Of a stretch of 64,000 nt of DNA, positions 9,454 to 11,917 are shown piece after piece. How positions within the stretch are numbered: the stretch's first letter is position 1; every line of letters begins with the position of its first letter. The stretch is from Escherichia phage vB_EcoM-pEB20. The stretch lies in the sequence record OP114733, one strand, 5' to 3'. Made by a program: the position numbers and the translations under genes. Below the pieces are notes generated by a model that was not told the DNA's origin, ran no database searches, and saw only the letters and a program-made list of their open reading frames with translations.

Positions 9454-10779
9454 ATGCAATTGAATTCTCGTAATCTAAAAAGTATTATTGATAACGAAGC
9501 CTTAGCATATGCGATGTACACCGTTGAAAACCGTGCAATCCCAAACATGATTGATGGATTTAAGCCGGTTCAACGTTTTGTGGTCCATCGTGCGTTAGAT
9601 TTGGCTCGTGGTAATAAAGAAAAATTTCATAAACTTGCGTCAATTGCAGGCGGTGTTGCAGATTTAGGTTATCACCATGGTGAATCTTCTGCACAAGATG
9701 CAGGTGCATTGATGGCTAACACATGGAACAACAACTATCCACTGTTAGATGGCCAAGGCAACTTTGGTTCTAGAACAGTCCAAAAAGCTGCAGCATCTCG
9801 TTATATTTTTGCTCGTGTAAGTAAAAATTTCTATAACGTATATAAAGATACTGAATATGCTCCAGCTCATGAAGATAAAGAACACGTTCCGCCAAAATTC
9901 TATCTTCCTATTATTCCGACAGTTCTTTTGAATGGCGTCTCTGGTATTGCAACCGGTTACGCAACAAATATTCTGCCTCATAGTTTTAAATCAGTCAAAA
10001 AGGCTGTATTACAAGCTCTTCAAGGTAAAAATGTCACTAAGCCAAAAGTTGAATTCCCAGAATTCCGTGGTGAAGTACATGAAGTTGATGGGCGTTATGA
10101 GATTCACGGAACATATAAGTTCACATCTCGCACTCAAATGCAGATAACTGAAATCCCATATAAATTCGACCGTGAAACGTATGTGAGTAAGGTTCTTGAC
10201 CCGTTGGAAGACAAAGGTCTAATCTCATGGGAAGATGATTGCGGTGAACACGGCTTTGGGTTTAAGGTGAAGTTCCGTAAAGAGTACTCGCTTCCTGATG
10301 ATGAAGAGCTACGTCATGAAAAAATCATGAAAGATTTTAGTCTCATCGAACGTCGTTCACAAAACATCACAGTGATTAATGAAACGGGTAAATTAGCGGT
10401 CTATGATAACGTAGTGGACTTAATCAAAGATTTTGTTGAAGTCCGTAAGACTTACGTTCAGAAACGTATTGACAACAAAATCCTTGAATCTGAAAAAGCA
10501 TTTAAACTGGCTTTTGCTAAGGCACACTTCATCAAAAAAGTTATCAACGGTGAAATTGTGATTCAGGGCAAGACTCGTAAAGCTTTGACTGAAGAGCTAG
10601 CACAAATCGAAATGTATAAAGAACATGTCGATAAACTGGTAGGTCTTAACATCTTCCATATCACTTCCGACGAAGCACGTAAACTAGCAGAAGAAGCTAA
10701 AGCTAAGAAAGAAGAAAATGAGTATTGGAAGTCTACTGATGTTGTGACAGAGTACACTAAAGACTTGGAGGCACTTTGA
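9454..10779 (+). CDS. 52: DNA topoisomerase II medium subunit (GyrA-like)
   Basis: 441-aa ORF; N-terminal region MQLNSRNLKSIIDNEALAYAMYTVENRAIPNMIDGFKPVQR matches recalled T4 gp52. Confidence 0.9.
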   Translation: MQLNSRNLKSIIDNEALAYAMYTVENRAIPNMIDGFKPVQRFVVHRALDLARGNKEKFHKLASIAGGVADLGYHHGESSAQDAGALMANTWNNNYPLLDGQGNFGSRTVQKAAASRYIFARVSKNFYNVYKDTEYAPAHEDKEHVPPKFYLPIIPTVLLNGVSGIATGYATNILPHSFKSVKKAVLQALQGKNVTKPKVEFPEFRGEVHEVDGRYEIHGTYKFTSRTQMQITEIPYKFDRETYVSKVLDPLEDKGLISWEDDCGEHGFGFKVKFRKEYSLPDDEELRHEKIMKDFSLIERRSQNITVINETGKLAVYDNVVDLIKDFVEVRKTYVQKRIDNKILESEKAFKLAFAKAHFIKKVINGEIVIQGKTRKALTEELAQIEMYKEHVDKLVGLNIFHITSDEARKLAEEAKAKKEENEYWKSTDVVTEYTKDLEAL

Positions 10780-10855
10780 GTGCCCTAGCCTTAGGATTTC
10801 TCGGTGCAATAGCTGCACTAGTGATTTGGCTGTATTTGTTGGACAAACATGATTA

Positions 10856-10875
10856 GGGAGCTTCGGCTCCCTTTT
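10856..10875 (+). terminator. intrinsic terminator GGGAGCTTCGGCTCCC + T4 after gene 52
   Basis: GC stem, UUCG loop, T-run. Confidence 0.75.
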
Positions 10876-10896
10876 GTGCATTTTTCTCACAAAACA

Positions 10897-10925
10897 GTTT
10901 ACATGTGCTTCAAACATGATATTAT
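10897..10925 (+). promoter_or_regulatory. early/middle promoter (GTTTAC-N17-TATTAT with embedded TGCTTCA MotA-like box)
   Basis: consensus match; near-identical copy at 11219-11247. Confidence 0.6.
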
Positions 10926-10970
10926 AGACCTATCAAAACAAAACAACCAAATTGGAGAAATAAAATGTCT
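10897..10970 (+). repeat. promoter/leader cassette, copy 1 of 2
   Basis: about 90 percent identical to 11219-11290 including TGCTTCAAACATGATATTATAGACCTATCAAAACAAA and GGAGAAATAAAATGTCTAAA. Confidence 0.8.
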
Positions 10971-11180
10971 AAAATGAAATTAACCCAAAACACAACTACT
11001 CGTTTCGGTAAAGTTAAACCTGGTATGAATGCTCCCCGTAAAGCACTTGTTGAAGAATTAAATTTCTTAGAAGTTGAAATCAATTCTTTAGTGGTTCGCG
11101 GTTCAAATGGTCATCATTTAGAAAAGCTTCGTTCTAAAAAGGCAAAACTTATTGGCCTTATTAAAGAAATGAGTTTGTAA
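10965..11180 (+). CDS. hypothetical basic protein (71 aa), stand-alone module
   Basis: ORF with its own promoter/leader (10897-10964) that duplicates the motA promoter/leader; GGAGAAATAAA-ATG RBS. Confidence 0.55.
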   Translation: MSKMKLTQNTTTRFGKVKPGMNAPRKALVEELNFLEVEINSLVVRGSNGHHLEKLRSKKAKLIGLIKEMSL

Positions 11181-11218
11181 ATTTTACCAGGGCTTTTGGA
11201 AAAAGAGCCCAAAATAAA

Positions 11219-11247
11219 GTTTACTTTTGCTTCAAACATGATATTAT
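11219..11247 (+). promoter_or_regulatory. early/middle promoter of motA (GTTTAC-N17-TATTAT with TGCTTCA box)
   Basis: consensus match; duplicate of 10897-10925. Confidence 0.6.
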
Positions 11248-11290
11248 AGACCTATCAAAACAAATACTAATTTGGAGAAATAAAATGTCT
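11219..11290 (+). repeat. promoter/leader cassette, copy 2 of 2 (motA)
   Basis: see 10897-10970. Confidence 0.8.
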
Positions 11291-11917
11291 AAAGTTACTT
11301 ACATCATCAAAGCTTCCGAAAACGTTCTGAATGAAAAAACTGCTGCAATAATGGTTTATATCATTAAGAACAACTTCACCACTGCTGCCAATGTCCGTGA
11401 AGCTCTGGAAGCAGAATACAATGCATCGGTTGTTAACTCTAACATTGGTGTATTGATTAAGAAAGGTTTAGTCGAAAAATCCGGTGATGGACTTGTAGCA
11501 ACAGGTGAAGCAATGGATATTATCCAAAAAGCTGCAGACCTCTTTGCCCAAGAAAATGCTCCAGAACTTCTTCAGAAACGTAACACCAGAAAAGCACGTG
11601 GAGTTACTCCTGAAATGCATGAATTAGCAAACTTTGTTTTTGAAAATATTAAAGATAAAGTTGAAGTTAAAGAAATTGGTGAAAACCGTAGTAACTTAGA
11701 AGTTCGATTTGCAAAACGAGTTCTAGGTATTCGTCAGATCGAAATTCGTCGAGATGGTTCTCTTAGAATCTTTGCATACAACATGTCAGAAACTGAATCA
11801 AAGCTGTTTACTTCTCTTGAAAATGATGTTAAGATTAAGATCGGTGGTAAATATACTTATATTGACTTCCCTAATGTGTCCAAAGAAATCATTACCCTTG
11901 TAACTAACGTACTGTGA
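11285..11917 (+). CDS. motA: middle-transcription activator MotA
   Basis: 210-aa ORF; MSKVTYIIKAS...NSNIGVLIKKGLVEKSGDGL matches recalled T4 MotA. Confidence 0.9.
   Translation: MSKVTYIIKASENVLNEKTAAIMVYIIKNNFTTAANVREALEAEYNASVVNSNIGVLIKKGLVEKSGDGLVATGEAMDIIQKAADLFAQENAPELLQKRNTRKARGVTPEMHELANFVFENIKDKVEVKEIGENRSNLEVRFAKRVLGIRQIEIRRDGSLRIFAYNMSETESKLFTSLENDVKIKIGGKYTYIDFPNVSKEIITLVTNVL

Follow-up and report, generated by a model that had tools for sequence, protein, structure and literature searches.

Why does the promoter and leader of motA, the gene for the activator of middle transcription, stand twice between gene 52 and motA in Escherichia phage vB_EcoM-pEB20, once in front of motA itself and once in front of a small open reading frame (ORF)? 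In order to answer this question, we analyzed the 64,000-nucleotide stretch of sequence record OP114733 that is referred to here as the window. The window comes from an RB69-like T4-type phage of the genus Mosigvirus, its closest matches being vB_Eco_F31, BEU50, APCEc01 and ATK47 (98-99% identity), and the gene order on the + strand is gene 52, the small ORF (designated ORF-71), motA, and then arn-like ORFs. Our analysis indicates that the locus is very probably explained by modular shuffling of the promoter-early stem-loop (PeSL) type, by recombination between duplicated regulatory cassettes. The two cassette copies, A and B, and the genes that they precede are as follows:

10888-10973, + strand: cassette copy A (86 nt), with -35 GTTTAC at 10897-10902, TG and -10 TATTAT at 10920-10925, GGAG at 10954-10957 and ATG TCT AAA at 10965-10973
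10965-11180, + strand: ORF-71, 71 aa, 8 kDa, isoelectric point (pI) 10.35, in phrog_6200 (4e-40), a PHROG family without known function
11210-11293, + strand: cassette copy B (84 nt), motA's own promoter and leader, with -35 GTTTAC at 11219-11224, -10 TATTAT at 11242-11247, GGAG at 11274-11277 and ATG TCT AAA at 11285-11293
11285-11917, + strand: motA (Pfam MotA_activ 4e-40 and MotCF 2e-8; phrog_1345 5e-90)

The original prediction had described a near-identical repeat of about 70 bp, one copy of which precedes a basic 71-aa ORF and the other motA. The repeat is real and slightly longer than that: 76 of 86 aligned positions (88%) are identical between copies A and B, and the sole indel between them, of 2 nt, lies in the leader. 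The genes behind the two copies were likewise as described. Two blocks match perfectly, one of 37 nt (10906-10942 and 11228-11264) and one of 22 nt (10952-10973 and 11272-11293; TTGGAGAAATAAAATGTCTAAA). Read from 5' to 3', both copies consist of an A-rich tract, GTTTAC, a 17-nt spacer, TG-TATTAT, a leader of ~28 nt, a GGAG ribosome-binding site (RBS) 7 nt upstream of the ATG, and ATG TCT AAA, and the identity reaches three codons into both coding sequences. The A/T-rich tract upstream of GTTTAC is CACAAAACA in copy A and CAAAATAAA in copy B. The predicted promoters, GTTTACA-N17-TATTAT in copy A and GTTTACT-N17-TATTAT in copy B, both with an extended -10 TG, fit the T-even PeSL consensus TTTACW-N17-TAYWAT (Comeau et al. 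2014, PMC4122927). The window has the 34-nt promoter core in exactly two places, with 0 expected from 100 shuffles, and no cassette match beyond 16 nt was found elsewhere in it. Since none of the ~10 other early-type promoters in the window (GTTTAC-N17-TAnnAT) has extended similarity to the pair, the identity of the cassettes is more than a promoter consensus. Neither leader folds better than shuffled sequence, and a structured element in the 5' untranslated region was rejected. A homologous cassette precedes motA in RB69, JS98, JS10 and the Marfavirus F48.

The alleles of close relatives were compared across GenBank phage records, as an IMG/VR scan with MotA yielded two loci only, both of them empty-site alleles. 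About 150 Mosigvirus records match at 95% identity or more, and 76 of these carry ORF-71; the searches differ by about 10 records in their counts of carriers and non-carriers, which can be read only as "roughly half". Roughly half of these relatives, RB69 included, are without exactly one unit of ~320 bp, so that ORF-71 is present in some of them and by no means in all. With a 701-nt query, 84 records cover at least 80%; the sampled partial-coverage relatives (H106-H110; 95-97% identity) span the 701-nt interval in only 381-385 nt and therefore lack one ~320-bp unit. In the records of the empty genomes, tblastn found no ORF-71 anywhere. Alignment of RB69, NRG-P0074, phiC120, mar005P1 and two IMG/VR contigs showed that one cassette is kept and that the junction lies inside the identity blocks. 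In RB69, the A-type upstream region and spacer are joined to a B-type leader, placing the crossover in the 37-nt core, and in NRG-P0074, phiC120 and the two IMG/VR contigs an A-type leader is fused directly to motA codon 4, placing the crossover in the 22-nt block, from GGAG to ATGTCTAAA (RBS to codon 3). No fewer than two junction types are thus represented among the empty alleles; the A-leader/motA junction is frequent (92 records at 95% identity or more) and the RB69-type junction is rare. In addition, the mar005P1 cassette is an A/B/A mosaic, and NHEP10 retains ORF-71 with a copy B that has an A-type leader. Flank distances do not sort carriers from non-carriers, the window being nearer to two empty genomes, mar005P1 and NRG-P0074, than to ATK47, which carries ORF-71. 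Natural variants that lack exactly one unit, with the junction within the identity blocks, are what excision between the direct repeats would leave, as the original prediction had proposed.

These empty alleles raise the question of whether ORF-71 arrived recently. By tblastn, ORF-71 was found in 93 phage records, all Mosigvirus or Dhakavirus, with 76 records at 80% identity or more (Mosigvirus) and 17 at 72-77% (Dhakavirus, including JS98, Bp7, IME08 and VR5), and a search of 5.8 billion proteins returned just 8 clusters, all Mosigvirus- or Dhakavirus-like. ORF-71 is present once per record, and it adjoins motA in the contexts examined (the window, ATK47, NHEP10, JS98 and IME08). Compared with the JS98 ortholog, it has 75% aa identity and a ratio of nonsynonymous to synonymous divergence (dN/dS) of 0.23, by which it is a real gene under purifying selection. 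The nucleotide identity between Mosigvirus and JS98 is 72% for each of ORF-71, motA and the 3' end of gene 52, and dS is about 1.0 for ORF-71 and 0.94 for motA. Because its divergence equals that of gp52 and motA, ORF-71 is judged by these comparisons to be older than the Mosigvirus/Dhakavirus split and to have co-diverged with its flanks since before that split; recent horizontal acquisition of ORF-71 in this lineage was rejected for the same reason. With an ancestral ORF-71, what has happened recently in this lineage is loss and copy-to-copy conversion.

Conversion is also suggested by the bases that the copies have in common. The core has lineage-specific bases that are common to the copies within a genome, namely GCTTCAAACATGATATTAT in Mosigvirus, GCTTTAAACATGATACTAT in JS98 and JS10, and GCTTTAAACGTGTTATTAT in IME08. 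In Mosigvirus, copy identity continues through the RBS into codons 2-3, which in ORF-71 are TCT AAA (an MSK start), as in motA, and every Dhakavirus ortholog starts MNK. Because the identity runs into these codons and the Dhakavirus orthologs start MNK, the MSK start of Mosigvirus ORF-71 indicates a conversion tract from the motA leader into ORF-71.

Other cargos occur between the same boundaries. On the left, the slot is bounded by a conserved gene, and motA is its conserved right flank:

9454-10779, + strand: gene 52 (topoisomerase II medium subunit), a 441-aa ORF, with gp52 annotated in ATK47, RB69, T4 and JS98

The Dhakaviruses display every cargo combination at this gp52-motA slot:

IME08: cassette, ORF-71, hairpin, cassette, ORF-73, cassette, motA, with cassettes 1 and 2 identical over about 63 nt
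JS98: ORF-71 alone
IME341: ORF-73 alone
PSD9: empty, with an A-type leader joined to motA by way of the shared GGAGATACAAAATG
JS10: ORF-75 between two cassette copies, followed by the same hairpin as after ORF-71

ORF-75, the 75-aa ORF of JS10, has no detectable similarity to ORF-71. It was found in 168 records, among them many Tequatroviruses at 97-99% aa identity to JS10, and in the Tequatrovirus fFiEco06 it occupies the same gp52-motA slot; T4 has no ORF-75. JS10 and fFiEco06 are 97-100% identical over a tract that begins with the leader, takes in ORF-75, the hairpin and cassette B and reaches ATGTCTAAA, and 50-75% identical in gp52 and motA. This tract of about 390 nt (fFiEco06, L011 1190-1600; JS10, L009 590-1010) begins at CTATCAA, just after the -10 box, and ends at the motA start, i.e., it is bounded within the cassette. 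The comparison points to a recent intergeneric transfer of the ORF-75 block into the Tequatrovirus that also replaced motA's promoter: since the tract spans cassette B, the motA of fFiEco06 now stands behind a Dhakavirus-type promoter. Relatives of ORF-75 are found in the same slot of Citrobacter phage Merlin, together with two further ORFs, in the nrdC.10/.11 region of Salmonella phage S16, where the relative lies between direct repeats of ~60 nt (-10 box to ATG), and near tRNA genes in a Jiaodavirus; relatives of ORF-73 occur in Mosigviruses at other loci. Because their relatives occur at other loci, the ORF-73 and ORF-75 cargos appear to be mobile, with a flanking duplicated promoter/leader as a recurrent signature in sequence. 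A tblastn search of the window gave no matches for ORF-73, ORF-75 or the two extra Merlin ORFs. The original prediction had the module inserted by recombination between cassette copies; ORF-75 at the same slot and the JS10/fFiEco06 tract bear out the exchange, and a recent insertion of ORF-71 did not hold.

The cassette before motA is not uniform among these phages. In IME341 (L012 1415-1485) and IME08 (L019 1122-1198), it has a different upstream half that lacks GTTTAC and carries an inverted repeat (AGGTCTAT..ATAGACCT) over the -10 box, resembling another PeSL subclass of RB49/phi1. In Klebsiella phage vB_Kpn_F48 (Marfavirus; L015 316-1066), motA stands behind the same cassette (about 92% over 67 nt), and synteny breaks exactly at the cassette because the gene upstream of it is not gene 52; it encodes a 215-aa protein with an HExxH motif (phrog_10840).

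Each copy in the window is preceded by a stem-loop:

10855-10886, + strand: predicted intrinsic terminator after gene 52 and a 26-codon micro-ORF (described below), with stem AGGGAGC/GCUCCCU, UUCG loop and U-rich tail
11190-11210, + strand: hairpin GGGCUUUU-GGAAA-AAGAGCCC (GGGC...GCCC) with an 8-bp stem, upstream of copy B (dG -12.2 kcal/mol, z -2.4)

The upstream stem-loop (10855-10872; dG -15.7 kcal/mol, z -4.1, with a U-run) stands before copy A, and the stem-loop after gene 52 is annotated as a terminator in ATK47 and NRG-P0074. The hairpin at 11190-11210 was rejected as a canonical intrinsic terminator, because both strands lack a U-run and the terminator scan did not pick it up. Its Dhakavirus counterpart, GAGCUCUU...AAGAGCUC, retains the stem, with a compensatory change of G-C to A-U and a second change that turns a wobble into a pair. 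The same hairpin lies 3' of ORF-71 in JS98 and IME08 and 3' of ORF-75 in JS10 and fFiEco06, and because it follows both ORFs it is best read as a shared linker and not as part of one cargo. Of the promoter-ORF-hairpin module that had been predicted, the hairpin after the ORF stood, and its belonging to one cargo did not. By their position and fold, the two structures correspond to the stem-loop halves of the cassettes, 10855-10886 to that of the upstream cassette and 11190-11210 to that of the downstream one.

Taken together, we propose that the repeats are composite regulatory cassettes, each made of a stem-loop, an A-rich tract, a T4-type sigma-70 early promoter, a short leader and a GGAG RBS, and that copy A would place ORF-71 under motA's immediate-early control. 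The homologous recombination of the phage would cross over between copies A and B, which is feasible because the perfect 37-nt and 22-nt blocks lie only 320 bp apart. Such a crossover would remove one unit and leave a single hybrid cassette, in principle with a circle of ~320 bp; gene conversion would homogenise the copies; and in a mixed infection a cargo ORF could be inserted or replaced at any resident cassette. The gp52-motA gap thus acts like a short array of cassettes, the content of which varies between phages that are nearly identical elsewhere. Some points weigh against this proposal. Ordinary double crossovers in gp52 and motA during co-infection could also carry presence or absence from phage to phage within a genus, which leaves the number of independent events uncertain, with at least two junction types demonstrated. 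ORF-71 itself, by its divergence, bears no sign of recent insertion. Furthermore, because the hairpin at 11190-11210 has no U-tract, it is only a putative "terminator" half of the downstream PeSL, and transcription that starts at copy A may continue into motA.

Three other explanations were weighed against shuffling between cassettes. In a static regulatory arrangement, the motA promoter would have been copied once for ORF-71, the similarity would be kept by selection, and the indels of the relatives would be unrelated illegitimate deletions. The motA cassette is indeed constrained across genera, as between Mosigvirus and Marfavirus F48, and ORF-71 is old and vertically inherited, as such an arrangement would have it. 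However, all junctions examined lie within identity blocks and remove exactly one unit, leader positions that are free between lineages are nevertheless co-identical within genomes, the copies of NHEP10 and mar005P1 are converted or mosaic, and unrelated cargos sit within the same boundaries; we consider a static arrangement very unlikely, and junction mapping largely refutes it. Collapse of a 320-bp tandem-like unit during assembly would make the "empty" genomes artefacts, and short-read assemblers can collapse repeats. The repeat here is only about 85 nt, shorter than typical reads, though, and the unit is absent from dozens of independent assemblies, the reference RB69 genome included, with two distinct junction types and, as noted, no ORF-71 in the empty records by tblastn, so that this explanation was rejected as scarcely credible.

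The remaining alternative concerns the agent of exchange: a dedicated recombination activity, specific for sequence, would recognise the stem-loop (GGGC...GCCC) and take the place of general homologous recombination. Stem-loop-directed recombination was speculated upon by Mosig et al. 1998 for T4 deletions and discussed by Arbiol et al. (PMC2839356), and the hairpin at 11190-11210 would suit it, as it has GGGC...GCCC, a structure conserved through compensatory changes, and travels with different cargos. Yet the crossovers map to the promoter core and the RBS/ATG blocks and not to the hairpin, Dhakavirus hairpins have GAGCTC instead of GGGC/GCCC and show the same shuffling, the ORF-73 unit is without such a hairpin, and no recombinase candidate was identified, with no systematic recombinase search run. 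We therefore regard a dedicated activity as improbable, and general homologous recombination between the duplicated cassettes as the preferred reading.

The arrangement has a close precedent. PeSLs were described as stem-loop/early-promoter/RBS elements that flank ORFans in RB49/phi1 (Arbiol et al. 2010, PMC2839356) and were extended to PST/T4 and nt-1/KVP40 (PMC4122927). Both papers describe a single chimeric element at empty sites and cargo replacement, and mini-circles were experimentally shown in RB49/phi1 only (PMC2839356). The gp52-motA locus likewise has a stem-loop, an A/T-rich tract, an early promoter, a Shine-Dalgarno sequence and a start codon flanking small uncharacterised ORFs, a single hybrid element at the empty site (RB69, NRG-P0074, phiC120, mar005P1 and PSD9), and replacement by unrelated ORFs (ORF-75 and ORF-73); at the level of sequence, all the features that define PeSLs are present. 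In contrast to the published PeSLs, one copy here is the promoter of the essential regulator motA, so that an exchange replaces the promoter of motA as well (fFiEco06 being a case); the identity enters three codons of both coding sequences, and the downstream stem-loop lacks a U-run. The locus is also known from sequence alone, unlike the RB49/phi1 PeSLs for which circles were shown. In the main text of PMC2839356 and PMC4122927, motA and RB69 are not mentioned and JS98 figures only for the gene 43 locus. Because neither main text covers it, the gp52-motA locus is a new instance of PeSL shuffling, i.e., a new locus of an already published mechanism and not a new kind.

Other systems are less close. 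The internal-protein (IP) loci of T-even phages have repeated early-promoter/stem-loop elements (Repoila et al. 1994, as described in PMC2839356). Compared by description only, they resemble the present locus in their T4-type early promoters, which go with stem-loops that are weaker and AT-rich, and in the shuffling of small genes among T-even phages, and differ in locus and cargo. Morons (Hendrix et al. 2000) also place one accessory gene, equipped with a promoter of its own and a stem-loop downstream, between two conserved genes; they are not, however, bounded by conserved direct repeats that mediate movement, whereas here the regulatory sequence itself would be the recombination substrate. 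Integron cassette arrays share the gain, loss and reordering of small promoter-proximal ORF units at a fixed site (as in IME08, JS98, IME341, PSD9 and JS10), but here each unit has its own promoter and exchange is presumably by general homologous recombination. No integrase is among the annotated genes around the slot (gp52, motA, arn genes, ndd and ac), again short of a systematic recombinase search, and copies A and B are promoters and not attC-like sites as in an attI/attC system. Morons and integron arrays are best taken as functional analogies only.

What the shared cassette would mean for expression can be read from T4. RB69 has a regB gene, and the cleavage site given in its annotation is GGAG. 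Because RB69 has regB and the leaders of copies A and B have the same GGAG RBS, ORF-71 would, by analogy with T4, probably come on together with MotA in a short immediate-early burst, with both leaders predicted to be RegB-sensitive. The AF2 model of ORF-71 (model confidence, pLDDT, 76) shows a basic, disordered tail over residues 1-22 and a hairpin of two helices (23-44 and 50-70). A Pfam search with ORF-71 gave nothing significant, and Foldseek of the model against PDB and BFVD returned only non-specific helical-hairpin matches. Based on the model, ORF-71 is presumably a small basic helical-hairpin early protein, an accessory factor for host takeover or related to defence.

The MotA box of T4 middle promoters, (a/t)(a/t)(a/t)TGCTTtA, is placed 12 +/- 1 bp upstream of the -10 TAnnnT (PMC2988021). 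The spacer of copy B contains a perfect match to the MotA-box consensus (TTTGCTTCA, 11226-11234), 7 bp from the -10 box, and the spacer of copy A has TGTGCTTCA at 10904-10912. The cassette was rejected as a MotA-dependent middle promoter on account of this spacing of 7 bp and because no TAnnnT is found 11-13 bp downstream. The motif is also found in the motA promoters of Dhakavirus and Marfavirus, it is inverted (AAGCA) in the spacer of the T4 motA promoter, and WWTGCTTYA is enriched in the window (27 matches, compared to 9 expected). By its position, the spacer box could be an operator for MotA autoregulation. A broader reading, which we put forward tentatively and think rather unlikely as a whole, joins this box to the shuffling: the motA cassette would be a conserved "landing pad" in Mosigvirus, Dhakavirus, Tequatrovirus and Moonvirus and would form a MotA-box autoregulatory loop. 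As a landing pad, it may capture small ORFs as arrays under motA's immediate-early, RegB-limited programme, and capture may replace the promoter of the master activator of middle transcription, as in fFiEco06. In the autoregulatory part, MotA could use the spacer box to shut off its own early promoter and those of the captured genes; if true, this would be an undescribed autoregulatory loop.

Copy A also has an inverted repeat, CATGT..ACATG, between its -35 and -10 boxes (10901-10917). In ATK47 the repeat is doubly changed, to CACGT..ACGTG, and phiC120 has a one-sided intermediate. Several other early promoters of the window (34043, 35226, 38764, 42347 and 49708, among others) have a short inverted repeat between -35 and -10, such as CCACAA..TTGTGG and ACACC..GGTGT. 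By inspection, these repeats resemble the PeSL subclass in which a stem-loop stands between -35 and -10.

For a mechanism documented so far in few phage pairs, the gp52-motA locus is an unusually clean natural series, with empty sites of two junction types, single cargos, an alternative cargo, a two-cargo array, converted copies and a cassette-bounded intergeneric tract. It shows T4-type phages gaining, losing and exchanging small accessory early genes without disturbing essential neighbours, and cassette exchange can rewire the motA promoter. ORF-71, ORF-73 and ORF-75 are flagged as dispensable, mobile early genes and as candidates for host-takeover or anti-defence roles, and the gp52-motA gap is a naturally tolerated insertion site for the engineering of RB69-like phages.

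A search of 10600-11500 against Rfam gave no match at E <= 1. Some annotations around the cassette are probably in error. In NRG-P0074 (L002 775-912) and NHEP10, an annotated "hypothetical protein" spans the terminator and promoter, a probable annotation error in public records, and the same spurious ORF, of 42 aa, appears in the mechanical ORF list of the window at 10849-10977. The start of the motA coding sequence in IME08 (L019 1122-1829) is probably misannotated, 75 nt too far upstream and inside the promoter cassette. The slot also contains the micro-ORF mentioned above, outside the repeat:

10776-10856, + strand: hydrophobic micro-ORF of 26 codons, MSALALGFLGAIAALVIWLYLLDKHD, whose TTG start overlaps the gp52 TGA stop

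Its 3' end is the start of the gp52 terminator stem, and it is unannotated in the four Mosigvirus records examined (ATK47, NRG-P0074, mar005P1 and phiC120). The equivalent in JS98 and JS10 has 34 codons, and the positional counterpart in T4 is motA.1 (49 aa), whose ATG overlaps the gp52 stop.

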